Source: Candidatus Tayloriibacteriota bacterium (GTDB lineage Bacteria; Patescibacteriota; Minisyncoccia; Phycocordibacterales; PALSA-1337). From it: a DNA stretch of 64,000 nucleotides. How positions within the stretch are numbered: position 1 is the first letter of the stretch; each line of letters starts with the position of its first letter. Shown one piece after another: positions 4,093-54,017 of the stretch. Made by a program: the position numbers and the translations under genes. The notes below the pieces were generated by a model. That model did not search any database and was not told the origin of the DNA. It saw only the letters and a program-made list of their open reading frames with translations. The stretch covers positions 7,994-71,993 of the forward strand of contig CALRAJ010000002.1 of NCBI GenBank assembly GCA_943350765.1, in the 5' to 3' direction.

Positions 4093-5839
4093 TACCGTTC
4101 AGTAATTTCATCAGAAAGTGGTTCTCAGGTTGTTTTGTCCACCAGAGGTGTAGTAATGAAGCCAAAAAAGAGACTTTGGAGCCCATTTCTCCCACCAGAG
4201 GCGTAGAAGTAACCCTCTAAAAGGGGGTTCGCAGGCGGGTAGCCGAGACTTCAGGAATTTTCTAGTAAGAAAATATCCGTACCCTTTTAGAGGGTTTACT
4301 TCGTAACCCTTGACTATTATAACCATTCATATATACTACTCCTACCCTAATCGAAACAGGGGTGTTCTTTGAAACTGTGCCAAAATAAGTTATGCATTAA
4401 GAACGTAGTTTAAACGAAGTCGTTTAATACGTGCAAGTCCCTGTAAAGTATTCAACAAGCATATTTTACGGGTGAGTCTAAAAAGTTTAGGAAAGTAGAA
4501 TCTTCGCAGTCGGCGCCCTTCTTTGTTGCAAGCTCCGTTCGCTTCCGCAATGTATTAGTATACATTTTGGTCGCGATACTCGCTCGCGCCTCGAAGTGCA
4601 TCCAACTACAAAGATTCTATGACACACATTTATAACAATAATTTCAAGAGCATAGACAAACTCTAATACAAAGCTTCGGCGGAGTAGTAATTATTTGAAA
4701 ATCAAAGTATAGAATATTTTTCTTTATTTTGTTCCGTTCATTTAATTTAGAGTTTGATTCTAGCTCAGGATGAACGCTGGCGGCGTGGGTAAGGCATGCA
4801 AGTCAAACGGCCCGCAAGGGCAGTGGCGAACGAGGTAGTACAAAGTAGGTAACGACCCTGGAAGTCAGGAATAACTAGTCGAAAGATTAGCTAATACTTG
4901 ATGGTCTCGCGAGAGTAAAGATTTATCGCTTCCAGATCGGCCTGCTCGATATCAGCTAGTTGGTAGGGTAATGGCCTACCAAGGCAATGACGTCTAGGGG
5001 AGCTGAGAGGCTGACCCCCACCGATGGTACTGAGATACGGACCATACACCTACGGGTGGCCGCAGTCGAGAATCTTCCGCAATGGACGCAAGTCTGACGG
5101 AGCGACGCCGCGTGATCGATGAAGTTCTTCGGAACGTAAAGATCTTTTATGAGGGAGAAAGTTTATTGATAGTACCTCAAGAATAAGGGGTTGCTAAACT
5201 CGTGCCAGCAGCAGCGGTAATACGAGTGCCCCAAGCGTTATCCGGAATTATTGGGCGTAAAGGGTGTGTAGGTGGTTTTGTTAGTCTCTTGTTAAACCTC
5301 CCGGCTCAACCGGGAAGATGCAAGGGAAACGGCATAACTAGAGGATGCGAGGGGTCTGTGGAACTCATGGTGTAGCGGTGAAATGCGTTGATATCATGGG
5401 GAACACCAAAAGCGAAGGCAGCAGACTGGAGCACTCCTGACACTGAAACACGAAAGCGTGGGTAGCGAATGGGATTAGATACCCCAGTAGTCCACGCCCT
5501 AAACGATCTTCTCTGGTTTTTCGGAGTATCGACCCTCTGAGAGACGAAGCTAACGCGTTAAGAGAAGCGCCTGGGTAGTACGACCGCAAGGTTAAAACTC
5601 AAAGAAATAGACGGGGACTTGCACAAGCGGTGGATCATGTGGTTTAATTCGACGATAAACGAAGAACCTTACCAAGATTTGAAACCTAGTTGAAGACAAG
5701 AGGAAACTTTTGTCGCCGCAAGGCAATTAGGCAGGTGATGCATGGCCGTCGTCAGTTCGTGGTTTGAATTGTTCCCTTAAGTGGGGTAACGAACGCAACC
5801 CTCGTTGCCTGTTATATATGTCAGGCGAGACTGCCCTCG

Positions 5840-5969
5840 ATTTTGTTCGGGAGAACAAAATCGAGTCGAAAGTAGAAAGTCAAAAGTACACAGTCGGATG
5901 CAAGTGCATCCACTCGGTACTCAGTACTTTCGACTTTTGACTCCGATTTCGATCGCTCGTGATCAAAAT
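5840..5969 (+). other. About 130-nt insertion in the loop of 16S helix 40 (IVS/expansion-segment type)
   Basis: Lies between GAGACTGCCCTCG and CGAGGGAGGAAGGCGAGGATGACG, where E. coli has about 7 nt. The insert is a nested hairpin (CTCGATTTTGTTC/GAACAAAATCGAG; GGATGCA-AGT-GCATCC) and its ends pair (CTCGATTTTG ... CAAAATCGAG). Confidence 0.6.
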
Positions 5970-6099
5970 CGAGGGAGGAAGGCGAGGATGACGCCAGGTC
6001 AGCATGTCCCTCTGATATCTTGGGCTACACACGTGATACAATGCCCGGTACAACAGGTTGCAATACCGCAAGGTGGAGCCAATCCTTATAAGCCGGGCC

Positions 6100-6136
<37 letters not shown>

Positions 6137-6198
6137 CCGGAATCGCTAGTAATCGCAGGTCAGCTATACTGCGGTGAATACGTTCTCAAGTCTTGTAC

Positions 6199-6615
6199 TC
6201 AAAATTAAAAGCGCCAGGCAGGTGCTGAATCTAGGTTGTTAAAATCAACCCTTTCCGAATACAATACAGGAGAGTAGTGAACGGGTAATCATTTGGTCGC
6301 GAGGCTAAGTGATGAAGGATCCTAGTAGCAAAAAGCAGCCCATTCAAAAAAGAGGGATACGACCCATATGGTGAGTTATGGGGAAGTATCGCAAATAACC
6401 TCGAATGGGATGCATGGAATAGAATCAGTACTGACCCTTGGGAGATCTCCTGATATGAAAAACAATCGAAGTATCAGTAGAAGTCAGCTGCGTCGTAGTA
6501 CCCATTTTTTATGATGGGGAAGGACAAAACCGATAGTGTTAAAACTATTGGACTCGCGTAGTGCGGGAAATCCGCTCGCTACGTGGGAACGCAAAATGTT
6601 GTTTCATTATTGCAA
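6199..6615 (+). other. About 415-nt ORF-less insertion in the 16S decoding-centre region (putative self-splicing intron)
   Basis: Interrupts the universally conserved CTTGTAC|ACACCGCCCGTCA block (E. coli about 1397-1400). No ORF over 60 aa; must be removed for a functional 16S. Boundaries are approximate. Confidence 0.5.
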
Positions 6616-7500: not shown

Positions 7501-7539
7501 GATGGCTCACTGGTTTTACTTTTAAACCAGTGAGCCATC
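7501..7539. repeat. Hairpin repeat, GATGGCTCACTG family (GATGGCTCACTGGTTT-TACTTTT-AAACCAGTGAGCCATC)
   Basis: Perfect 16-bp stem. Paralogous copies at 40398-40440 and 44061-44103 differ by a compensatory G/C swap (tgGttt/aaaCca versus tgCttt/aaaGca). Confidence 0.6.
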
Positions 7540-11687: not shown

Positions 11688-13727
11688 ATGAATGAAGACG
11701 AAAATAAAATTACTTACTTCGGACAAACGGACGCTCGTAATAAAAAAACTCCGTTTGGTATAAAACGAAAAGATCGTTCTAAACACACCTATGTTATTGG
11801 TAAAACAGGTATGGGTAAATCAACCCTGCTTGAAAATATGGCAGTGCAGGATATTCAAAATGGGGAGGGTCTAGCTTTTATTGATCCTCACGGCAAGACT
11901 GCTGAGCTTCTTCTGGAATATATTCCCGAACATCGCATAAAGGATGTTTTGTATTTTGCACCTTTCGATATGGAGTACCCAGTTTCGTTTAATGTTATGG
12001 AGGATGTGGGTGCAGACAAGAGGCATCTAGTGGTAAACGGTCTCATGAGTACTTTTGAAAAGATTTGGGTAGATGCTTGGTCTGCTCGCATGGCATATAT
12101 TTTAAATAATACACTACTAGCACTTCTTGAGTATCCTGGGGCTACACTTCTCGGTGTAAACAGGATGTTGGCAGATAAAGACTATCGAAAAAAGGTGGTA
12201 GATAATGTTACCGATCCATCAGTGAAGTCGTTTTGGATTGATGAGTTTGGAAAGTATACAGAGCGTTTTGCGGCTGAGGCAACTCCCGCTATTCAAAATA
12301 AGGTGGGGCAGTTTACCTCAAATCCGCTGGTGCGAAATCTGATCGGTCAGCCAAAGTCATCCTTTAATATTCGCCAGATGATGGACGAGAAAAAGATTTT
12401 GATTATCAACCTATCGAAAGGTAAGGTGGGAGAAGGGAATGCTAATCTTATTGGTAGTATGCTCATTACCAAAATCTATCTTGCAGCAATGTCTCGAGCA
12501 GATCTCACAGAGCGAGAACTAAAAAAATATCCCAATTTTTATCTATATGTAGATGAGTTTCAGTCCTTCGCCAATAAGTCCTTTGCCGATATTCTGTCCG
12601 AAGCACGAAAATATAAACTAAACCTAACTATCGCCCATCAGTACATTGAGCAAATGGAGGAGGAGGTGCGTGATGCAGTGTTTGGAAATGTTGGCACAAT
12701 GGTGGCTTTTAGAGTAGGTGCCTATGATGCAGAGGTGCTTGAAAAGGAATTCGCTCCACATTTTACATTGGAGGATATTGTAAATCTTGGCGTATATCAG
12801 ATATATTTAAAATTAATGATTGATGGAGTGGGATCACAGCCATTTTCAGCAACTACGATGGCACCTATTAGGTTACCAAGTATTTCTTATAAAAATGAAA
12901 TTATCGAAAGTTCCAGAAAGCTTTTTGCACAGCCGAGATCGGTAGTAGAGGAGGAGATAAAACAATGGCATGAGCAGGAGCGTGTGGGTCCGAGTAAGCC
13001 ATCAGGTGGAGGGCGTGTAGGAGTGGATAATTCAGCCAGTACCAGTCTATCTAAAGGCGGAGGGAGTGTCGGTCAGGTCGCTATCGTATCTAGTGGTGAT
13101 ATAACGCAACCCATTACTCCAATACCACCCTCAAAAACTGTCGTTCAAAAAGTAGAAATCAAAAAAATAGAAAAAATAATTATAAAGGAACCCCTAGTAG
13201 CCCTTAATTTAAAAGATGCGTTAAAAAATATAGTTTTAGGTGCATCCGCGAGCAAGTTTGTTGGGGTTGAAAAACCAAAACCACTTCATCAGATGGTCTC
13301 AACTTCAGCGCCAAATCCTACAGGATATACGGTTGTATCATCTTCTTTAAATGCACCTAGTCATGATCGTGAAATGGATCTTCGTCGTGCGGTTTCTTTG
13401 GATTATTTAAAAAAAGCTCCACAGCAACGCGAGCCTAAAAATCAACCAGGGGGAAAGCCTGTGAGTCAAAAGAATATTGATGATTTACGATCGGCACTTG
13501 CTTCGGTTATGGGTACAAGTTTTCCTTCAAAAAAGTCAGAGGAATCGACCGCTCCATTGGCGGAGCCTATAGTTAAACATCCTAAACCTATCACAGCAAA
13601 TCCTTCCCAAACCTATTCAAAGTCTTTGGAAAAGCCGGTACCAGAAAATAAAAATACAGCAAAGGTAGAGTTGCGTGAAGTACCTGAGGATGTACTACGA
13701 AAAGTACTCAAACTCGATGAAAAGTAG
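11688..13727 (+). CDS. TraG/VirD4/TrwB-like P-loop ATPase (type IV coupling-protein family) with about 260-aa disordered Ser/Gly/Pro/Lys-rich C-terminal tail
   Basis: Walker A VIGKTGMGKSTLL; FYLYVDEFQSFANKSF...ARKYKLNLTIAHQYIEQM resembles the T4CP Walker B/arginine-finger region; low-complexity C-terminus. Confidence 0.5.
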   Translation: MNEDENKITYFGQTDARNKKTPFGIKRKDRSKHTYVIGKTGMGKSTLLENMAVQDIQNGEGLAFIDPHGKTAELLLEYIPEHRIKDVLYFAPFDMEYPVSFNVMEDVGADKRHLVVNGLMSTFEKIWVDAWSARMAYILNNTLLALLEYPGATLLGVNRMLADKDYRKKVVDNVTDPSVKSFWIDEFGKYTERFAAEATPAIQNKVGQFTSNPLVRNLIGQPKSSFNIRQMMDEKKILIINLSKGKVGEGNANLIGSMLITKIYLAAMSRADLTERELKKYPNFYLYVDEFQSFANKSFADILSEARKYKLNLTIAHQYIEQMEEEVRDAVFGNVGTMVAFRVGAYDAEVLEKEFAPHFTLEDIVNLGVYQIYLKLMIDGVGSQPFSATTMAPIRLPSISYKNEIIESSRKLFAQPRSVVEEEIKQWHEQERVGPSKPSGGGRVGVDNSASTSLSKGGGSVGQVAIVSSGDITQPITPIPPSKTVVQKVEIKKIEKIIIKEPLVALNLKDALKNIVLGASASKFVGVEKPKPLHQMVSTSAPNPTGYTVVSSSLNAPSHDREMDLRRAVSLDYLKKAPQQREPKNQPGGKPVSQKNIDDLRSALASVMGTSFPSKKSEESTAPLAEPIVKHPKPITANPSQTYSKSLEKPVPENKNTAKVELREVPEDVLRKVLKLDEK

Positions 13728-39103: not shown

Positions 39104-39295
39104 AATACAAATTCCATTCGGTTGGTGGGGAGAACTTAAATTTTTATTTAACTGGGGTATATTAGTTTGCTGTAGAAAGATTTATTATGGTATACTGATT
39201 GTAATATATTGTTCCAAGTTGTGGTCGACGACTGTACTCACAATAGTCATTTATTTGGAGCTCACACCCGTCGACCAGAATTTGGCGTAATATCT

Positions 39296-40363
39296 ATGAA
39301 AGATTTAGTAATACAAGAAAACATTGTGCTTCGAGATTATACGACTTTTAAAATCGGGGGAAACGCCCGATATTTTTGTGTAATAAAAAACACAGAAGAT
39401 CTAAAATCGGCACGCGTTTTTGCCGAACAAAAACGCGTGCCGATTTTTATCCTCGGTGGCGGTTCAAACATTTTGATATCAGATGACGGTTTTGATGGTC
39501 TAGTCATCAAAAACGAAATCAAGGGTATACAGTATGAAAAACAGCCAGACGGTAAAACCCTAACGACAGTCGGTGCAGGAGAAGTCTGGGACTTTTTTGT
39601 CTCGGATACCATTGCTCACGACCTAGGTGGACTCGAAAACCTCTCTGGTATCCCTGGCACAGTCGGTGCCTCCCCAGTGCAAAATATCGGTGCTTATGGA
39701 GCAGAAGTCAAAGATACTATTGTTTCGGTTACAGCCATCGATCATATCACTGGCGAGGAGAAAATTTTCTCACATGACGAATGTCAGTTTAGTTATCGTC
39801 ATAGTTTCTTTAAAACTTACGCAGGTAAAAAATGGGTCATCACTTATGTGCAGTTTTTACTCGATTCTCTCAAGCCTATTTCAATAGAGTATAAAGACCT
39901 CGTTACTTATTTTGTACCCAAGAACTACACTACAATTTCAAGGCAGAATGTGCGTGATGCTGTGCTCGCTATCCGTCATGCAAAGTTACCTGAATTAAAA
40001 AGCCTAGGCACCGCTGGATCATTTTTTAAAAATGTTACCATCTCAAAACAGCAGTATGAAAATCTAAAAATAAAGTGGCCAAATCTACCAGGCTTCCCAG
40101 TATTGACTTCCGACTCCCGACTTTTGACTACCAAAATCCCTCTCGCTTGGATTCTGGACAATATCTGTGGCTTCAAAGGTATGCGAGTCGGGGAAGTAGG
40201 TGTTTATAAAAATCAGGCACTGGTTTTAATCAATTACGGTCAGGGTACCGCAGTAGATATTGCTAATCTAGCAAAATCTATGCAGGAAAAAGTGTATGAA
40301 ATGACAGGTATTACTATCGAGCCAGAGGTGGAGTATATTTTTCCGGAAAAGTTGTTAAAATAG
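39296..40363 (+). CDS. murB: UDP-N-acetylenolpyruvoylglucosamine reductase
   Basis: FAD-binding FKIGGNARYF..., GGGSNIL; MurB C-terminal domain. Start refined from 39209 to the conserved MKDLVIQENI. Confidence 0.85.
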   Translation: MKDLVIQENIVLRDYTTFKIGGNARYFCVIKNTEDLKSARVFAEQKRVPIFILGGGSNILISDDGFDGLVIKNEIKGIQYEKQPDGKTLTTVGAGEVWDFFVSDTIAHDLGGLENLSGIPGTVGASPVQNIGAYGAEVKDTIVSVTAIDHITGEEKIFSHDECQFSYRHSFFKTYAGKKWVITYVQFLLDSLKPISIEYKDLVTYFVPKNYTTISRQNVRDAVLAIRHAKLPELKSLGTAGSFFKNVTISKQQYENLKIKWPNLPGFPVLTSDSRLLTTKIPLAWILDNICGFKGMRVGEVGVYKNQALVLINYGQGTAVDIANLAKSMQEKVYEMTGITIEPEVEYIFPEKLLK

Positions 40364-40377
40364 CCCAAAATATCTTC

Positions 40378-40442
40378 AACGGCTCACTGGTCTGTAGTCG
40401 ATGGCTCACTGCTTTTTAATACAAAGCAGTGAGCCATCGACC
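40378..40442. repeat. GATGGCTCACTG-family repeat, left boundary of the R-M island (half-site plus 18-bp hairpin)
   Basis: CAACGGCTCACTGGTCTGTAGTCGATGGCTCACTGCTTT-TTAATAC-AAAGCAGTGAGCCATCGACC; near-identical to 44018-44105. Confidence 0.65.
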
Positions 40443-40570
40443 TAAAATATAGCTATAATAAAGGGTTCAATTAGTATTGGTAGGTATATAGGTAAGCGAT
40501 GTACAAGACTATATATTTCTACAAGCAAAAATGATAGAATGGATATATGTGAATGATTTAAAAAAACACT

Positions 40571-41842
40571 ATGAGTAAAGATATAATTACACTATTAAAT
40601 AAAACAAAGATTGATCACTCATGGTCTTTTTCTGATAAGACAAGAAAGGACACGGCGTATATTACGCATGGTTATCATCGCTACCCAGCAAAGTTTATTC
40701 CTCAAATAGTCTCTCGTTTGGCAGAAAAATACACCCGAGAAGGAGATTTTATCGTTGATCCATTTGGTGGGTGTGGAACGACACTCGTTGAATCAAAAGT
40801 TATGGGGCGACCATCAATTGCTGTTGATATTAACCCTGTTGCAGTTTTGATAACAAAAGCAAAAATCACCCCAATTAACCCCGATAAAATTGAGAAAGAA
40901 TTTGCAACACTTCAGAAGAGATTAGAAACTTATAACGAAGATACAAAAGTCAAAGCACATGAACATGAACGGATAGATTATTGGTTCAAACCCGAAAATA
41001 AAAGGAAGCTCGCCTTTATCTTTACCGAAATTTCAAAAATTAAAGATCAGGATGTTCAAGACTTTTTCTTTTGTGGATTTTCAAATATTCTCAAAAATTG
41101 TTCAATATGGTTACAAAAAAGCAATAAGCCGACGAGAGATTTTGAAAAGAAACCGTCAGATCCAATTAAAACTTTTTTTAAGCAAATAAAAATGATGTTG
41201 CGTGGCAACACACGACTATTTGAATTATTATCAGAGAAAGGTTATTTGAAAATTCCAAGCAAGGTAGTTTGTACGGACGCAAGGACAATTCCAGCAAAAG
41301 ACAATAGTATTAGCTTGATCGTTACCTCTCCGCCATATGTTACCTCATACGAATATGCCGATTTACACCAACTTACTGCATTATGGCTAGAATATACAAA
41401 GGATTTGAGTGATTTCAGAAAGCGTTTTATTGGCACTTCATATCACAGTAAGAAAGATTTGATACTCAATAGTTCAATCGCAGAAAGTATCCGAAAAGAA
41501 TTGCTGGAAATAGACAAAAAGACTGCCGAAGAAGTCTCAACATACTTCAGCGAAATGAATCAGGTTTTTGTTGAGATGGAAAGGATACTCAAGAAAGGAG
41601 GAAAAACGTGTATTGTTGTCGGGAACACGAGCCTGAAAGGTGTTAAAATACTAAACGCCGAGGTTTTTGTTGAACAATTACAAAATTTAGGACTGAAAGT
41701 CACGGATGTTATCAAAAGGGAAATACCTTCAAAAAATTTACCCTCAGTGAGAGATAAAAAAACAGGCAAGTTTGCAGCGATAACGGATAAAAATAAAGTT
41801 TCCGCATATCCAACAGAATATATATTAGTAATGCAAAAATAA
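40571..41842 (+). CDS. DNA methyltransferase (N4-cytosine/N6-adenine family, SPPY type)
   Basis: HRYPAKFIPQIV...GDFIVDPFGGCGTT (SAM-binding motifs X-I), catalytic SPPY (LIVTSPPYVTSYEYAD). Confidence 0.8.
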   Translation: MSKDIITLLNKTKIDHSWSFSDKTRKDTAYITHGYHRYPAKFIPQIVSRLAEKYTREGDFIVDPFGGCGTTLVESKVMGRPSIAVDINPVAVLITKAKITPINPDKIEKEFATLQKRLETYNEDTKVKAHEHERIDYWFKPENKRKLAFIFTEISKIKDQDVQDFFFCGFSNILKNCSIWLQKSNKPTRDFEKKPSDPIKTFFKQIKMMLRGNTRLFELLSEKGYLKIPSKVVCTDARTIPAKDNSISLIVTSPPYVTSYEYADLHQLTALWLEYTKDLSDFRKRFIGTSYHSKKDLILNSSIAESIRKELLEIDKKTAEEVSTYFSEMNQVFVEMERILKKGGKTCIVVGNTSLKGVKILNAEVFVEQLQNLGLKVTDVIKREIPSKNLPSVRDKKTGKFAAITDKNKVSAYPTEYILVMQK

Positions 41843-41846
41843 AAAT

Positions 41847-42530
41847 ATGACCAAACAAGATATTGTTAATTTATATGAGAGGTATAAGAAATTACATGGA
41901 AATAATGCCTTCAAACATATTTCTGCAATTTTAATTGAGGCAAAAGGACTTCACAACAAAGATTTTTTGAAAAATCCAACCCCAAAAGGTGATCATGAGC
42001 AATCATGGAAGGGTTTCAAAGGTAGTGCTTTAGAGACATTAATTGATCATGTCTTAAAAGAAGAAGTAAATAGTTTGGGGTTAAATATTGTATCAGGAAA
42101 AAAGTTTGAAAAAACTAAGCCAGAGAATTTATCGATAGAATTGCAGACTGTTAAGAGAAATCTTTCTATTGATTTTGGTGAATTTGGTTTTCATATACCA
42201 GATGTTGATCTAGTAATATATAATCCAAAAACCTTCAAGGTCGTTGCTGTTTTATCAAGCAAGTCGACTTTGCGAGAAAGAATAGCCCAATCAGGTTATT
42301 GGAATATAAAAATTAAGAACTACGATTTAACAAAACATATTAAGGTGTTTTTTGTAAGCCCAGATGAAGACGGTAATTTTTCTCTCGGAAGAAATCTTGG
42401 AAAGAGTAGAGCGATTGTGGAAACAGATCTTGATGGAGCATATGTTATGACAGAGCAATCCGTTAGAGAAAGTGAGAAAGTCAAAACATTTGATAAATTT
42501 ATTGATGATCTTAAAAAACTTTTGAAATAA
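41847..42530 (+). CDS. Hypothetical protein, candidate restriction endonuclease by context
   Basis: 227 aa between two DNA MTases; possible PD..D/ExK-like residues (IPDVDLVIY...SSK) but not convincing. Confidence 0.3.
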   Translation: MTKQDIVNLYERYKKLHGNNAFKHISAILIEAKGLHNKDFLKNPTPKGDHEQSWKGFKGSALETLIDHVLKEEVNSLGLNIVSGKKFEKTKPENLSIELQTVKRNLSIDFGEFGFHIPDVDLVIYNPKTFKVVAVLSSKSTLRERIAQSGYWNIKIKNYDLTKHIKVFFVSPDEDGNFSLGRNLGKSRAIVETDLDGAYVMTEQSVRESEKVKTFDKFIDDLKKLLK

Positions 42531-42534
42531 AACT

Positions 42535-42933
42535 ATGGAACAATTACTTTTACAACTTGGGTTAGGAATTGCTTCAAACACGATGTATGATTTTTTGAAG
42601 GATTTTTTCACTAAAAATTATAAACCTGATAGATTACAATTACAAAATAAGCTAGCTTCTTTTCTTGATGTTCAAAACGCCAACATAATAGCCGATAAAA
42701 TTATTACTTTTTTGGCTCAGAATGGAGATATAAGAATTAATGGAACGAGTATTTACGCTAATGATTCAATTTCTATGTCTTCCACAAAAAACACAAAATT
42801 TACTTTTGGAAATAATAGTTCCAGTACAACGAAAAATACAAAAATAGAAGTTGGTAATGGTGCTTTCATTCAAGGACAAGGCTGTGCAGGAATAAAACAA
42901 AATGACGATGGCAGTATTAATCTTTTTACTTAA
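42535..42933 (+). CDS. Hypothetical small protein with Asn/Ser/Thr-rich C-terminus
   Basis: 132-aa ORF tightly packed (4-bp spacers) inside the R-M island. Confidence 0.35.
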   Translation: MEQLLLQLGLGIASNTMYDFLKDFFTKNYKPDRLQLQNKLASFLDVQNANIIADKIITFLAQNGDIRINGTSIYANDSISMSSTKNTKFTFGNNSSSTTKNTKIEVGNGAFIQGQGCAGIKQNDDGSINLFT

Positions 42934-42936
42934 ATT

Positions 42937-43605
42937 ATGGAAATTGAATCAACAACACTTTGGGATTTTCCAAGACAGAATTATGGAGATACCCCACACG
43001 GAAACAATAAATATAATGGCGTTACCCCTGCGGCAGTAATTTGGAATTTGCTACAACGATACACCAAAGAGGGCGACTTGGTCGTGGATCCGATGTGCGG
43101 AAGTGGAACGACTATCGATGTTGCCAATGAATTGAAGCGTAAGGTTATTGGGTATGATCTTAATGTAACAAGACCAGAAATAATCAAAAATGATTCTCGT
43201 AAAATTCCGCTTGCTGACAATTCCGTTGATTTTATTTTCATTGATTCGCCGTATTCGGACAATATAAACTATTCCGATAATAAGGAGTGTATAGGAAAAA
43301 TATCTTGCGAGAAAACGGAATTTTATGATGAGCTAGAAAAAACCGCTAGTGAAATCGCAAGGATTTTGAAGCCCGGCAAAGCGATTGGTTGGGTAATCGC
43401 TGATCAATGGGTAAAGAAGAAATTTACGCCTGTTGGTTTTTTAATGTGGCAGAGATTAGAAAAATATTTTGAAACAGTCGATATGATTTGCCTCACTCGT
43501 CATAATCAAACATCAAATACGGGAATTTGGCACGAACGAGCAAGACAGTATAACTTTTATCTCAGAGGATTCAAGTATCTATTCATAATGAGAAAAGTTA
43601 AGTAA
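42937..43605 (+). CDS. DNA methyltransferase (short N4/N6 family, second MTase of the island)
   Basis: PAAVIWNLLQRYTKEGDLVVDPMCGSGTT (motifs X-I) and FIFIDSPYSD (motif IV variant); paralogous N-terminus to the MTase at 40571. Confidence 0.7.
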   Translation: MEIESTTLWDFPRQNYGDTPHGNNKYNGVTPAAVIWNLLQRYTKEGDLVVDPMCGSGTTIDVANELKRKVIGYDLNVTRPEIIKNDSRKIPLADNSVDFIFIDSPYSDNINYSDNKECIGKISCEKTEFYDELEKTASEIARILKPGKAIGWVIADQWVKKKFTPVGFLMWQRLEKYFETVDMICLTRHNQTSNTGIWHERARQYNFYLRGFKYLFIMRKVK

Positions 43606-43668
43606 AATAGAAATAGGCATAAAACTATTTAGATGTACCACGCACGCATCGTCTAGTACTAAAAAATC

Positions 43669-43677
43669 TGGTATAAT
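43669..43677 (+). promoter_or_regulatory. Extended -10 element TGGTATAAT, 9 nt upstream of ATG 43687
   Basis: TGnTATAAT; no Shine-Dalgarno; predicts a leaderless or near-leaderless mRNA. Confidence 0.4.
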
Positions 43678-43686
43678 GTCTATACT

Positions 43687-43992
43687 ATGAACTCAACAAA
43701 ATTAATTTTAGTACTGGTGTTGCTAGGGGTACTGATTTGGCTGTATCGAAACAGGTCTAATGTCTGGCGACCAAATAGGGAACGGGTGTGGGCAAAATCG
43801 GAGCATAAGCATCAAGTGATGGAGCTGTTTTTATTGCCAGGTATGCGAGTGAAAAATGACGATGTACAGAGGCTGACTGGTGTTTCTGACGCGACTGCCA
43901 CAAGGTATCTAGATGAACTCGAAAAAGAAGGACTAATACGGCAGGTCGGGGTAGTAGGTGGGTATGTGTATTATGAGAAAATAGGGAAATAG
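43687..43992 (+). CDS. Membrane-anchored winged-helix DNA-binding protein
   Basis: N-terminal TM (LILVLVLLGVLIWLY) plus C-terminal wHTH-like RLTGVSDATATRYLDELEKEGLIRQVG. Confidence 0.45.
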   Translation: MNSTKLILVLVLLGVLIWLYRNRSNVWRPNRERVWAKSEHKHQVMELFLLPGMRVKNDDVQRLTGVSDATATRYLDELEKEGLIRQVGVVGGYVYYEKIGK

Positions 43993-44017
43993 CCCGAAGC
44001 AGAGCCATTTTATGAAA

Positions 44018-44105
44018 CGATGGCTCACTGGTCTGTAGTCGATGGCCCAGTGGTGTTTGGTCGATGGCTCACTGCTTTATAATACAAAGCAGTGAGCCAT
44101 CGACC
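44018..44105. repeat. GATGGCTCACTG-family repeat, right boundary of the R-M island (two half-sites plus 18-bp hairpin)
   Basis: CGATGGCTCACTGGTCTGTAGTCGATGGC...TCGATGGCTCACTGCTTT-ATAATAC-AAAGCAGTGAGCCATCGACC. Confidence 0.65.
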
Positions 44106-44272
44106 TCGTCTGGACTAAATTAAGAAGCTTTTTAGGTATCGGACAACTGATTAATTTTTAAAACAAAGTTTAGTCTCGTTCTATCCCCACGGCAAGCCGT
44201 CGGGGTATTCTCCACAATTAAAATAAAAATCCCCACGAGTGTGAGGAGTCAGGCTGTCGGATTGAGGAGGAA

Positions 44273-44578
44273 ATGGCGAAGTTTGACTGCCCGCTTGCCG
44301 ATGATTTGCTTGAGCCACTGTGCATTAGTGTCGGCACACTGCATGATGAGGAGGGCGTTCTGTTTGGTCAGACCGATCTGTTTGCTGGCTCGGTAAGTAG
44401 TATTCGTAGAAACAGTTCTCCGTACCCTGAATCCAACATTTGCGTTGGCGACAGCAGTGATTGGGCAATGGCAGGTGCATCCGTTTACTCTCCGACCAAG
44501 ACGTATAGAGGTACGGTTCGGGATGATGTGCCAATTACTCGTAAAAAGCTCTTTGTAAGCTTGTTTGAATTCGCGTAG
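44273..44578 (+). CDS. Ambiguous small ORF (101 aa) in a GC-rich 0.45-kb island; an alternative 111-aa ORF lies on the minus strand (44249-44584)
   Basis: Plus ORF preceded by GAGGAGG 5 nt before ATG, atypical for this genome. Minus ORF is followed by a terminator (CCTCAC-ACTC-GTGGGG plus T-run, about 44222-44246). The coding strand cannot be decided by eye. Confidence 0.25.
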   Translation: MAKFDCPLADDLLEPLCISVGTLHDEEGVLFGQTDLFAGSVSSIRRNSSPYPESNICVGDSSDWAMAGASVYSPTKTYRGTVRDDVPITRKKLFVSLFEFA

Positions 44579-44713
44579 TGTCATAAGTAATCCGTGCTGA
44601 GTTTTGTCGAAGAGCGTCCTACGGAGGTGTAGGACTCATTTAATCTAATACTACCAGAAATATGTACTATGTCAAGCCAGCCTAACCAGATTATATGCTA
44701 TAATAACCCCACT

Positions 44714-47215
44714 ATGTCATTTTTCACAAAAATATTTGGCGATTCACATACAAAAGCCCTAAAGGTGTATTCTCCATTCGTGTCAAAAATCAACGCTTTT
44801 GAGCCGAGTATCAAGGCACTTTCTGATGACGCCCTAAAGGCAAAAACCACTTACTTTAAAGCCGAGCTGGCTAGTGGGAAAACACTCGAGGATATTCTCC
44901 CAGAGGCATTTGCTGTGGTTCGTGAAGCATCTTTTCGTACTCTAGGACAGCGTCATTTTGATGTTCAGCTTTTAGGTGGAATGGTGCTTCATCATGGCAA
45001 GATTGCTGAGATGAGAACAGGAGAAGGTAAAACTCTCGTCGCCACCCTTCCTGCTTATCTCAATGCACTCACGGGCAAGGGTGTGCAGGTGGTTACAGTC
45101 AATGACTATCTATCACGCCGTGATGCGGTGTGGATGGGGCAGGTATATTCTTTTCTCGGACTTTCGGTAGGTGTGATAAATCATGAAGCCTCTTTTCTCT
45201 ACGATCCAAATCACAAAGAACTCGATAGTGAGCGAGATGAAGTCGGAGCATTTAAAGTTATCCACGAGTTCCTCCGCCCAGTTTCTCGTCGAGATGCCTA
45301 TTTGGCGGATATTACCTATGGTACAAACAATGAATACGGTTTTGACTTTTTACGAGACAATATTGAGTACCAAGTAGGCAATCTTCGCCAGAGAGAATAT
45401 AACTTTGCTATTGTGGACGAAATCGACTCAATCCTCATTGATGAGGCTCGTACCCCGCTGATTATTTCTGCACCGACCGCGGAGTCTGGAGATCTGTATG
45501 TTACTTTTGCCCAGATTGCGAACAAGCTCAAGCAGGAGCAAGACTATACTATTGATGAAAAGTTAAAAGCTATTACGCTCACCGATGCGGGTATCACTTC
45601 TGCTGAAAAGATTCTCGGTGTCGAAAATATCTATACCGAAAAGGGGATTAAATATGTGCATCATCTCGAGACGGCTGTCCGAGCCAAGGCACTTTTTCAT
45701 CTCGATAAAGAGTATGTAGTAAGAGACGGGGAGATAATGATTGTCGATGAGTTTACCGGCCGAATGCAACCGGGTAGAAGATGGTCAGAGGGCTTGCATC
45801 AGGCGATCGAGGCAAAGGAGGGAGTGAAGATTCAAAAAGAGTCACGGACTTTTGCGTCTATTACATTTCAAAATTATTTCCGTCTTTACAAAAAGCTCGC
45901 GGGTATGACTGGTACCGCACTCACCTCGAGCGAGGAGTTTTACAAGGTTTACGGACTAGATACTGTCGTGATTCCGACCAACAAGCAGATTCAGCGTCTC
46001 GATCACAATGACCTCATTTTCCAGACCGAGTCGGGCAAATTTAAAGCGGTAGCGAGGAAAATAAAAGAACTCAACAAAGCAGGTCAGCCAGTACTTGTAG
46101 GTACTGTGTCTATCGAGAAAAACGAAGTACTTTCGGAGTATCTAAAACGCGAAGGTGTGCCACACGAGCTTTTGAATGCTAAAAATCACGAGCGAGAGGG
46201 AGAAATTATCGCGCAAGCTGGTAAAAAAGGTGCGGTAACTATTGCTACCAACATGGCAGGACGAGGGGTGGATATCAAGCTCGGAGGCAATCCGACCACA
46301 CCCGAAGCACAGGCGGAAGTACTCTCACTCGGTGGACTTTTTGTGCTGGGTACAGAGCGACATGAGGCACGGCGTATTGATAATCAGCTCCGCGGACGAT
46401 CTGGTAGACAAGGTGATCCTGGTGCGACACAGTTTTTCGTATCTCTCGAGGACTCACTGATGCGAATATTTGCGTCCGATACTATTAAAACCGTGATGGG
46501 TAAGCTCGGTGTGGCCGAGGACGAGGCGGTAGAAAACAGAATGATTACTCGCTCGCTCGAAACAGCTCAGACTAAGATCGAAGGTTTTAATTTTGACTCT
46601 CGAAAACATGTGCTTGAGTATGACGATGTTCTAAATCTTCAGCGAAAGACGGTGTACGAAAGAAGACGAAAGATTCTCGTCGGTACCGTAGCCGATGTTA
46701 AAGAAAAGCTTGCTGAGGTGGTGGGTGATGATGCTGGGTTACTCAAGGTGATTGTCGAAAAAGTCGCGTCTATAGGTGAGGAAATTTATTTTAATACCAT
46801 ACGACAGCTTTTGCTCCAGACCATAGATATGTTTTGGGTGGAGCATCTCGAGCTTATGGATTATGTCCGCTCGAGTGTAAATCTCCGTGCTTATGGTCAG
46901 CGTGATCCTCTGGTGGAATACAAAAAAGAAGGTTTGCGACTGTTTAAAGAAATGCAGACGGCGATCGATGAACAGATTTGCAAACTTTTACCAAATGTCG
47001 GCGGTGTCGCACTTTCCCATGAGGAGGTAAAACTCCAAGAAGTGCATGAGCAGGCACAGGTGATCGGTAGTGGTGATGGAGATGCAAACAAAGCTCATTC
47101 TGGAGGTTCTCTGGTCCCTGAGGCACCCAAAAATTCCGACGGAGAGAAAATAGGTAGAAACGACCTCTGTCACTGCGGGTCTGGAAAGAAGTTTAAAAAG
47201 TGTCATGGGAAGTAA
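44714..47215 (+). CDS. secA: Preprotein translocase ATPase SecA (start refined from 44669)
   Basis: MRTGEGKTLVATLPAYLNALTGKGVQVVTVNDYL (Walker A/NBD1), DEAD-like motifs, C-terminal zinc finger CHCGSGKKFKKCHG. Confidence 0.9.
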   Translation: MSFFTKIFGDSHTKALKVYSPFVSKINAFEPSIKALSDDALKAKTTYFKAELASGKTLEDILPEAFAVVREASFRTLGQRHFDVQLLGGMVLHHGKIAEMRTGEGKTLVATLPAYLNALTGKGVQVVTVNDYLSRRDAVWMGQVYSFLGLSVGVINHEASFLYDPNHKELDSERDEVGAFKVIHEFLRPVSRRDAYLADITYGTNNEYGFDFLRDNIEYQVGNLRQREYNFAIVDEIDSILIDEARTPLIISAPTAESGDLYVTFAQIANKLKQEQDYTIDEKLKAITLTDAGITSAEKILGVENIYTEKGIKYVHHLETAVRAKALFHLDKEYVVRDGEIMIVDEFTGRMQPGRRWSEGLHQAIEAKEGVKIQKESRTFASITFQNYFRLYKKLAGMTGTALTSSEEFYKVYGLDTVVIPTNKQIQRLDHNDLIFQTESGKFKAVARKIKELNKAGQPVLVGTVSIEKNEVLSEYLKREGVPHELLNAKNHEREGEIIAQAGKKGAVTIATNMAGRGVDIKLGGNPTTPEAQAEVLSLGGLFVLGTERHEARRIDNQLRGRSGRQGDPGATQFFVSLEDSLMRIFASDTIKTVMGKLGVAEDEAVENRMITRSLETAQTKIEGFNFDSRKHVLEYDDVLNLQRKTVYERRRKILVGTVADVKEKLAEVVGDDAGLLKVIVEKVASIGEEIYFNTIRQLLLQTIDMFWVEHLELMDYVRSSVNLRAYGQRDPLVEYKKEGLRLFKEMQTAIDEQICKLLPNVGGVALSHEEVKLQEVHEQAQVIGSGDGDANKAHSGGSLVPEAPKNSDGEKIGRNDLCHCGSGKKFKKCHGK

Positions 47216-50767: not shown

Positions 50768-50856
50768 ATGTAAAAAAATGGCTTGATCTATAGTTAGTAA
50801 GATTTGTCGGTTGTTCAAGACCTTACCCTAAAGCTAGGTTATATAATCACAAAAAT

Positions 50857-51020
50857 TCAAAGGCTAAACGCTAGCGTTTAGCCTTTGAATTTTTGACCCA
50901 ATAGCCGATTTTGAGCCTAATTTTGCCAAACCGTGGCTAAAAATCATTCATACTTCCTTTTTGAACATCTAGCTCTGTATAGCCACGCTAAACGGCTAAA
51001 CTCATGAGTTTAGCCGTTTA
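50857..51020. repeat. Two perfect 34-bp palindromes of the AACGGCTAAAC family
   Basis: TTCAAAGGCTAAACGCTAGCGTTTAGCCTTTGAA (50857-50890) and CTAAACGGCTAAACTCATGAGTTTAGCCGTTTAG (50987-51020), both with palindromic 4-bp centres. Confidence 0.65.
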
Positions 51021-51132
51021 GTGGGTGCGGGATGGGGTTTGGTAGGGTAAAATCCCCCTCGACATACTCTCCGCGGGGGTCATTCCTTTCTCCAGGACTA
51101 CCCATTTTTCGCTAGTTTTTTAGCCTAAAATC

Positions 51133-53983: not shown

Positions 53984-54017
53984 TCAAAGGCTCAACGGTG
54001 TACCGTTGAGCCTTTGA
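53984..54017. repeat. Palindrome TCAAAGGCTCAACGG-TGTA-CCGTTGAGCCTTTGA (AACGGCTCAAC family)
   Basis: 15-16-bp perfect stem with GTAC centre. Confidence 0.55.

Follow-up and report, generated by a model that had tools for sequence, protein, structure and literature searches.

Between the housekeeping genes murB and secA, a 64,000-nucleotide stretch of contig CALRAJ010000002.1 from Candidatus Tayloriibacteriota bacterium (hereafter the window) carries a compact restriction–modification (R-M) island flanked by palindromic direct repeats. We read this region as a horizontally acquired Type II R-M operon, in which two methyltransferase genes (M1 and M2), an endonuclease gene (R) and a small gene (X) follow each other in the order M1-R-X-M2, inserted together with a gene for a winged helix–turn–helix (wHTH) protein; we put the probability of this reading at about 0.62. 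We also consider it rather probable that the repeats mark the insertion event, by way of host-mediated recombination or duplication.

An insertion at the murB-secA junction

The uninterrupted junction is preserved in loci L009 to L014, which represent three lineages with MurB proteins that share 77% identity with that of the window and 79% with each other. In these loci murB is followed by one hairpin element, a minus-strand homolog of a 111-codon gene (orf111) and secA, and the murB-secA spacer of 600–630 bp contains neither R-M genes nor the wHTH gene. The orf111 homologs are 36–45% identical over their full length and occupy the same position (tblastn), and the native locus can therefore be reconstructed as murB, hairpin, orf111 on the minus strand and secA. 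The earlier note had envisaged an empty murB-secA junction with a single copy of the repeat in related genomes; such a junction with a single hairpin is found in these loci, though the hairpin sequence differs. Judged by this comparison, the window holds a genuine insertion of about 3.6 kb between murB and secA. The closest relatives in the collections are those at 77% MurB identity, and a MurB search of the genome contigs returned only an unrelated Balneolaceae locus; the nearest named MurB homologs come from Patescibacteria, Parcubacteria and Paceibacterota, and the window is a Patescibacteria-type contig.

The insert measures 3578 nucleotides (40444–44021) and comprises M1, R, X, M2 and the wHTH gene, five co-directional open reading frames (ORFs) between murB (39296–40363) and secA (44669–47215). 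In the ORF list all five lie at the coordinates given in the earlier note, and the R-M character proposed there is borne out by matches of the endonuclease and of both methyltransferases to Pfam and PADLOC families. Spacers of 4, 4 and 3 nucleotides separate M1 from R, R from X and X from M2. The G+C content (GC) of these four genes is 0.30–0.375, as against 0.40–0.46 in murB and secA and 0.403 in the whole window, and the cassette is compositionally foreign at this locus. Scans of the island ORFs with Pfam, PADLOC and NCBIfam gave no integrase or transposase domain. The left junction is found in the contig records L001, L002 and L003, and the right junction in the L001 record only, a contig reported from two samples. 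The genes and spacers of the locus are as follows.

39296–40363, plus strand: murB (UDP-N-acetylmuramate dehydrogenase), left housekeeping flank, with Pfam domains FAD_binding_4 and MurB_C
40444–40570, plus strand: AT-rich leader between the left repeat and M1, not common to other copies of the cassette
40571–41842, plus strand: M1, a 423-residue amino (N4-cytosine/N6-adenine) DNA methyltransferase (Pfam PF01555, PADLOC MTase_II)
41847–42530, plus strand: R, a predicted 227-residue Type II restriction endonuclease of the BsaWI/CCGG family (Pfam PF18643, profile and fold match)
42535–42933, plus strand: X, a 132-residue protein in the slot between R and M2, modelled with N-terminal helices and a C-terminal right-handed β-helix
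42937–43605, plus strand: M2, a short amino DNA methyltransferase of 222 residues (Pfam PF01555, PADLOC MTase_II)
43687–43992, plus strand: wHTH, a 101-residue membrane-anchored winged-helix protein (Pfam HTH_IclR/HTH_24/MarR)
44249–44584, minus strand: orf111, an uncalled 111-residue gene of the native murB-secA spacer (tblastn to the relatives' loci)
44669–47215, plus strand: secA, right housekeeping flank (SecA Pfam domains on the identical gene in L001)

The murB ORF opens at 39209, and its start was set at 39296, where the start residue of the relatives corresponds; homologs of 77% identity have 351–352 residues. The native spacer gene orf111 has a promoter-like site at 44675–44648 and a terminator-like hairpin at 44247–44230. 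Its product contains cysteines (CTCHCP), was left uncalled in the source annotations and matches no family in Pfam, NCBIfam or PADLOC.

A CCGG-family endonuclease

The 227-residue protein, which had been put forward as a candidate restriction enzyme, proves to be of the BsaWI family. It matches the Pfam family RE_BsaWI (PF18643) with 104.3 bits (cut-off 26.2; E=4.4e-30), and several of its 1594 homologs are named 'BsaWI family type II restriction enzyme'. A profile built from 12 R sequences matches the structure of BsaWI (PDB 4ZSF, E=0.002) over some 100 aligned residues; this profile was needed, phmmer with the R sequence alone against PDB not having found BsaWI. In the alignment, E63, P118-D119 and K139 of R correspond to E92, D145 and K165 of BsaWI, and the motif R143-E144-R145 corresponds to R169-D170-R171. 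The string K139-S-T-L-R143-E144-R145 is invariant in 12 R homologs, the R-(D/E)-R motif sitting just after the catalytic lysine. The catalytic and CCGG-reading roles of the BsaWI residues have been described (PMC4652773), and across the CCGG family the R-(D/E)-R motif reads CCGG, the characterised members targeting symmetric CCGG or CCNGG sites (PMC6344858).

An AlphaFold (AF2) model of R, with a predicted local distance difference test score (pLDDT) of 77, adopts the PD-(D/E)XK restriction-endonuclease fold, and its sole significant neighbour in the PDB is PfoI (6EKO; Foldseek E=4.5e-4, probability 1.00, TMq 0.63), with SgrAI among the weaker matches. Homologs and the PfoI fold cover R from end to end and leave no added cleavage domain. 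On these alignments and this model, R is a predicted PD...K Type II endonuclease of the CCGG family, similar to BsaWI and PfoI, and would recognise a CCGG-type site.

Word counts in the window do not assign that site: over its host part CCGG reaches 0.60 of the expected count, compared with 0.91 in relatives, and since GGCC, CCWGG, GCGC and ACGT are depleted as well, the avoidance is not specific to CCGG. Outside the island GGCC, CCWGG, GCGC and CCGG occur at 0.49–0.64 of expectation, and ACGT occurs 15 times where 95 are expected (ratio 0.16; 0.60 in relatives). The depletion of these five words suggests that the lineage has been host to several other restriction systems in the past.

Methyltransferases, slot protein and the type of system

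M1 matches Pfam PF01555 (E=3.7e-20) and PADLOC MTase_II (E=9e-60). Its motif I, DPFGGCGTT, is followed by an insert of about 180 residues and then by motif IV, which reads SPPY at residues 253–256, as expected of the SPPY-type enzyme that had been proposed. M2, which likewise matches PF01555 (E=9e-24) and MTase_II, is minimal, with motif I (DPMCGSGTT) followed by motif IV (DSPY) and no obvious target-recognition insert. That the second, short methyltransferase is a paralog of the first is upheld by BLASTP (E=1e-11), the similarity covering the N-terminal S-adenosylmethionine (AdoMet) region and the surroundings of motif IV. The nearest solved structures to M2 are the N4-cytosine methyltransferases 8S9M and 8S9N, and the nearest relatives of M1 and M2 include N4-cytosine methylases. 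M1 is 72% and M2 78% identical to the respective homologs in L007; at least six other loci conserve both alongside R, to which they are presumably cognate.

In clusters at 90% identity M2 has 678 members and M1 has 87, whereas R, X and the wHTH protein are singletons, and the methylases are therefore far more uniform across metagenomes than the nuclease that accompanies them. One sample contains a population variant with a nonsense codon in M2 (G43318T in window coordinates, E128*). It lies on L004 (ERZ27265269 k141_2656476), a contig equivalent to 40407–43743 of the window that switches midway through the wHTH gene, at 43743, to an unrelated nusA/trmB region. Either the strain has been rearranged here or the assembly is chimeric, and the join looks like a chimera. 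The variant gives a hint that the cell can do without M2, but the end of the contig that carries it is probably chimeric.

X has 37 homologs of constant length and belongs to no known family in Pfam, NCBIfam or PADLOC. Its model combines N-terminal helices with a confidently predicted small right-handed β-helix, for which fold searches returned generic β-helix matches only, with no function indicated. Across copies of the cassette the slot between R and M2 is occupied by three unrelated families, namely X, an 83-residue family and a family of 75–81 residues; X homologs are also found alone, away from R-M genes. The operon contains no C-protein, the small Xre-type HTH controller, X and the alternative slot ORFs being without an HTH or other significant Pfam match. 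The 132-residue protein is not a nuclease candidate; it is a small β-helix protein, by its model, in a slot filled elsewhere by unrelated small ORFs.

The earlier note had taken two methyltransferases and two uncharacterised proteins as signs of a defence system that acts at an asymmetric site (Type IIS-like) or is atypical in some other way; on such a reading the 227- and 132-residue proteins would be novel effectors. Both methyltransferases are indeed conserved in the unit, the need of a palindrome-type enzyme for both is unexplained, and the 132-residue protein has no assigned function. The presence of two methyltransferases does not by itself define Type IIS, however, and R lacks the separate recognition and cleavage domains of that architecture, being matched over its whole length by homologs and the PfoI fold. 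It is a 227-residue enzyme of the BsaWI family with the R-(D/E)-R motif for reading CCGG, a family whose characterised members recognise symmetric targets, and the order M1-R-small ORF-M2 is that of a widespread conventional cassette. X, moreover, is exchanged for unrelated ORFs of 75–83 residues, is uncalled in L015 although its ORF is present there and occurs away from R-M genes, while the population variant carries its nonsense codon in M2. We consider an asymmetric or atypical system extremely unlikely.

Distribution of the cassette

The order M1-R-(small ORF)-M2 recurs in at least six other contexts from distant lineages, with cassette proteins, R included, 66–78% identical across the lineages that bear it.

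L007/L008: another Patescibacteria genome
L015: a Deltaproteobacterium
L017: an Elusimicrobium
L019: Pacearchaeota archaeon GCA_001786395.1, with an extra GHKL-ATPase gene
L020, 4020–7073: GCA_964490125.1, M1-R-X-M2 inside a ribosomal-protein operon, between secY-ybaB and adk
L075: a metagenome contig, downstream of a Peptidase_S24 gene

Nucleotide homology (blastn) to other cassettes starts at about 40553–40607 and ends at about 43600–43608; for the closest copy, L075, it starts exactly at the ATG of M1 (40571). None of the other copies fetched has flanking long direct repeats or the hairpin of the window. Since these copies lack the repeats and homology begins at or just before the M1 start codon, the flanking repeats are not part of the cassette, which, as read from these loci, is a promiscuous gene-only module that would move between phyla without repeats. 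A tblastn search with R against plasmid and phage collections gave no match.

Some of these copies have features of their own. The additional gene of L019 (3346–5004) lies between M1 and R and encodes a 552-residue GHKL-type ATPase (HATPase_c_3). In L020 the stop codon of M2 overlaps the start of adk by 4 bp, the R-M unit being embedded in one of the most conserved operons. A viral contig of IMG/VR (L074, 4568–6318; UViG_3300025589_000824) carries an M1 homolog of 458 residues followed by an R cut to 122 residues, only the first 111 or so of them homologous, that runs into an SMC/SbcC-like gene; it looks as though this phage kept the methylase and lost the nuclease.

The wHTH gene

The wHTH protein has an N-terminal hydrophobic helix and an IclR/MarR-like winged helix (Pfam HTH_IclR/HTH_24/MarR, E=1e-5 to 1e-4). 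Its gene is within the insert and outside the shared cassette, has a host-like GC of 0.438 and possesses its own extended -10 element, TGGTATAAT, at about 43670. The gene is not present at the locus in the three related lineages sampled; as a singleton at 90% identity it has no close homolog in the collection, and no relatives were found in IMG/VR. All six contigs that carry it (6/6) show the same context.

The flanking repeats and their palindrome family

The earlier note had described near-identical repeats at both ends of the island, the right one with an extra half-site, and this description holds in detail. A repeat search recovers a 68-nucleotide family at 40376–40443 and 44017–44106, in which the core 40381–40443 equals 44022–44046 plus 44069–44106 at 62 of 63 positions, while the right copy has an additional 22-nucleotide unit (44047–44068); the repeats are accordingly 63 nucleotides long on the left and 85 on the right.

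40376–40443, plus strand: left repeat (repeat search), with a half-site, a 22-nucleotide step and a palindrome at 40397–40441
44000–44106, plus strand: right repeat, with three half-sites and a palindrome at 44059–44105
7501–7539, plus strand: third palindrome copy, GATGGCTCACTGGTTT-TACTTTT-AAACCAGTGAGCCATC, located downstream of tRNA-Ile, with pyruvate kinase on its other side

The left repeat consists of the half-site AACGGCTCACTG (40378–40389) followed by the palindrome GTCGATGGCTCACTGCTTT-TTAATAC-AAAGCAGTGAGCCATCGAC, and the right repeat of a reversed half-site-like sequence, CAGAGCCAT (44000–44008), followed by half-sites at 44019, 44041 and 44063. The left repeat has two 12-mer half-sites and the right repeat three, set at intervals of exactly 22 nucleotides; in each repeat the final one forms the 5' arm of the palindrome. 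Each palindrome is 45–47 nucleotides long and near-perfect, with a stem of 19–20 bp and a 7-nucleotide loop; as RNA these hairpins reach -35 to -58 kcal/mol (z of -7 to -8 against shuffles). Both copies stop sharply at an identical string, ...CCATCGACCT (ending GACCT), beyond which they diverge completely. With up to two mismatches the 12-mer GATGGCTCACTG occurs 13 times in the window where 3.0 are expected, a count reached by none of 100 shuffles.

This particular element has three copies in the 64-kb window. The copy at 7501 departs from the island copies at a single stem position, changed on both arms (C-G to G-C), which keeps the palindrome, and the loop differs as well; the island pair is far more alike than either member is to this third copy, which points to a recent common origin of the two. 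Related long palindromes with a GGCT[AC]A core stand after genes at 1139–1180, 50850–50895, 50988–51021 and 53984–54017. The family core, AAA(C/G)GGCT(A/C)AAC, is also seen in L012 (16590–16623) and at about 11100 in L009 and L012. Some of these gene-end palindromes keep their sequence at orthologous positions although the lineages share only about 77% protein identity, and are thus elements under a constraint on sequence, not merely on structure.

A further palindrome lies inside the murB coding sequence (39403–39447, codons ~36–51), where 45 nucleotides form a perfect 20-bp stem. The murB of L009 (10102–10140) has a perfect palindrome with an 18-bp stem and a different sequence in the same place, and the symmetry has therefore been kept by paired changes within a coding region.

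The two strong hairpins of the island probably insulate it transcriptionally, as a side effect. No T-tract follows the hairpin, and its identification as an intrinsic terminator was dropped for this reason. A dif/Xer-type site was discarded because the sequence is unlike dif and the element is multi-copy, a composite transposon flanked by miniature inverted-repeat transposable elements because there is no target-site duplication, and a CRISPR-like array because two to three 22-nucleotide units abut without spacers. Nor were contigs ending inside the hairpins retained as a sign of high copy number, as long perfect palindromes break de Bruijn assemblies. The exact hairpin was not found in the JGI metagenomes; a relaxed 20-base hairpin pattern gave 42 metagenome and 4 viral matches in JGI and IMG/VR, all of them unrelated hairpins at about chance level.

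Origin of the island

In the reading we favour, the insert would have entered by host-mediated recombination or repair at the hairpin that follows murB, so that each junction was left with a copy. The DNA had probably been taken up from a related donor, and the island itself would encode nothing for the reaction. By homology, the methylases would modify CCGG-type sites of the host and the endonuclease would cut unmodified incoming DNA. Given the 62/63 identity of the repeat pair and the unameliorated GC of the cassette, the origin of the repeats and the insertion both look recent. The first half-site of the left copy, AACGGCTCACTGG, is identical to the half-site after murB in L009. In addition, the last 85 or so nucleotides of murB and of the wHTH gene are weakly similar, including AAATAGCCC around both stop codons (z=3.2, 5 of 500 shuffles, in a post-hoc test); if real, this similarity extends the duplication into the 3' end of murB.

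Repeat-flanked R-M units were assigned by Furuta, Abe and Kobayashi to three classes, which arise through site-specific recombination, long target duplication or chance insertion between repeats (PMC2853133). Under the explicit criteria of Furuta et al. (2010), the insert holds both R and M, is smaller than 20 kb and is bounded by a repeat longer than 30 bp; it has no mobility gene. The proposal that the module was inserted or excised site-specifically is upheld in one part only: insertion follows from the relatives' uninterrupted junction, whereas site specificity is not demonstrated, there being no recombinase, no repeats around other copies and further hairpins elsewhere.

Several observations weigh against the reading we favour. 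The repeat is not unique to the island, given the third palindrome at 7501–7539 and the related GGCT[AC]A palindromes after other genes. Multi-copy repeats were screened out by Furuta et al. (PMC2853133), and two pre-existing paralogous elements could therefore have bracketed the insert by chance. The hairpin after murB in the relatives differs in sequence (AAAGGCTCAACG...CGTTGAGCCTTT, a form also present in the window at 53984), and only the 13 nucleotides of AACGGCTCACTGG align between the window repeats and that single element; as hairpins elsewhere are conserved between lineages, the supposedly duplicated target is thus seen in no empty site. The first unit of the right copy reads CGATGG, where the left has kept the ancestral CAACGG, which simple duplication does not predict. 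Among contigs carrying the R or wHTH proteins no excised, circular or empty allele of this organism was found, and among those with the exact proteins there is no alternative junction except that of L004. The host-like GC of the wHTH gene means that it might predate the cassette at the locus. For the enzyme, the second catalytic acid of BsaWI, D175, aligns with S149 of R, no alternative acid having been identified and the pLDDT of the model falling after residue 140, and the outer-base contact K85 aligns with G56; because these two residues are not conserved, a CCGG-type core can be deduced but not the full target site, and CCGG or CCNGG cannot be read off. The multi-copy element, the different hairpin at the empty sites and the CGATGG unit would together fit the import of a hairpin-bounded donor segment or conversion of 22-nucleotide units.

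Such points lend some weight to a second explanation, in which the hairpins are pre-existing paralogous palindromes of the terminator- or REP-like kind that end murB and the wHTH gene, and the cassette (about 40553–43608) dropped between them with the wHTH gene already in place. Members of the palindrome family are scattered over the 3' ends of genes (at 7501, behind tRNA-Ile, and in related form at 1139, 50850, 50988 and 53984), cassette homology ends at 40553 and 43608, well inside the repeats, and the other copies fetched have no such repeats; the wHTH gene has a host-like GC of 0.438 and its own promoter, and chance insertion between repeated sequences is a class recognised by Furuta et al. 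(PMC2853133). Yet the 62/63 identity of the pair, lower to the third copy, would then require recent duplication or gene conversion, the wHTH gene is absent from the locus in three related lineages and has no close homolog in the collection, and the weak similarity of the murB and wHTH 3' ends fits duplication of the murB end better. We regard this explanation as unlikely, although it deserves to be kept in mind.

The precise placement of same-orientation palindromes at both junctions, with identical outer ends, could alternatively indicate att-like sites (compare integron attC and the folded single strands of IS200/REP) for a recombinase encoded elsewhere, the module being excisable and able to re-integrate at other palindromes. 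Paired changes preserve the palindrome between copies, the 22-nucleotide-periodic half-sites resemble protein-binding arrays, and the copy at 7501 could be an alternative target. Against this stand the lack of an integrase or transposase in the island and in ten ORFs scanned around and upstream of the 7501 copy, near-perfect palindromes without the extrahelical bases or GTTRRRY core of attC, and the absence of a target-site duplication flanking the hairpins. Such sites border none of the other cassette copies fetched, the contigs carrying these proteins include neither an empty nor a circular form, and scans of the JGI metagenomes and IMG/VR did not recover the element, all of which makes att-like sites improbable.

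A more speculative proposal, which we hold to be highly doubtful, is that the GATGGCTCACTG palindrome may be a lineage-specific module of Patescibacteria for recombination or uptake, one that captures and brackets foreign genes at housekeeping 3' ends without a linked recombinase and, separately, that the slot proteins may be interchangeable modulators of the restriction enzyme, for instance DNA-mimic-like inhibitors that ease establishment. Host-mediated acquisition of the R-M operon together with the wHTH gene remains the reading we favour.

Relation to known systems and significance

R shares with the CCGG family (BsaWI, W^CCGGW; NgoMIV, Cfr10I, Bse634I, SgrAI, AgeI, Kpn2I, PfoI, Ecl18kI and EcoRII-C) the PD...K residues, the contiguous R-E-R and the glutamate of the N-terminal helix (E63). 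It is shorter, with 227 residues, than BsaWI (272) and PfoI (312), and it differs in having two amino-methyltransferases as partners. DpnII (DpnM/DpnA) and MboI (M.MboIA/B) are Type II systems with two methyltransferases per endonuclease, and the likeness to them lies in one small endonuclease gene flanked by two co-conserved methyltransferase genes, although the enzyme families differ.

The closest parallel for the locus is with the long-repeat R-M insertions described by Kobayashi and colleagues (Nobusato et al. 2000; Furuta et al. 2010, PMC2853133), which share a small insert with R and M, no mobility gene, repeats above 30 bp, an uninterrupted site in relatives, an insert GC below that of the host and a host group thought to take up DNA. 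Unlike in those insertions, the repeat is itself palindromic, has 22-nucleotide-periodic half-sites and at least one further genomic copy, the hairpin at the empty sites is a different one and the insert adds a host-like wHTH gene. Repetitive extragenic palindromic (REP) and bacterial interspersed mosaic elements (BIME), pairs of Neisseria DNA uptake sequences and Correia-type elements are similar in being strong palindromes just 3' of genes, with several related families per genome (here the GGCT[AC]A core); conservation at orthologous positions in related species and a place at the boundaries of variable DNA are shared as well. In contrast to them, the element has three copies in 64 kb, and no REP-associated tyrosine transposase (RAYT) or other transposase occurs among the ORFs scanned. 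Integron attC cassettes have in common with the island a compact co-directional module with a hairpin at its 3' end and another just upstream; they differ in that the island has no IntI (the rest of the window having been scanned in part), that the palindromes are near-perfect and lack the R'/R'' GTTRRRY core, that the module has its own leader and that the other copies fetched are without such sites.

The enzyme family, the type of cassette and the signature of long direct repeats are all already known, R-M systems of the Patescibacteria radiation are well documented in the literature, and nothing here changes what is known of R-M function or movement. Specific to this case are the clean empty-site comparison in Patescibacteria, the palindromic repeat and the variable slot for a small ORF. 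The locus documents mobility of R-M genes in small-genome Patescibacteria, where R-M is thought to be the main phage defence, and a compact CCGG-enzyme cassette that would travel, as genes alone, among bacterial phyla and DPANN-type archaea. The practical value is modest, a candidate new CCGG-type specificity with two amino-methylases. The analysis also flags a small conserved family of predicted β-helix proteins that rides in R-M operons, and points out a family of palindromic repeats at which short-read assemblies of this lineage break.

Other observations in the window

A match to Rfam group-II-intron D1-D4 (6447–6525; 39.6 bits, above the gathering score) lies 3' of the 16S rRNA (4742–6255) and before tRNA-Ile. 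Among cell-wall and glycosyltransferase genes, a 679-residue ORF at 11688–13727 has weak but above-threshold matches to T4SS-DNA_transf, TrwB and TraG-D_C, families of type IV secretion coupling proteins.

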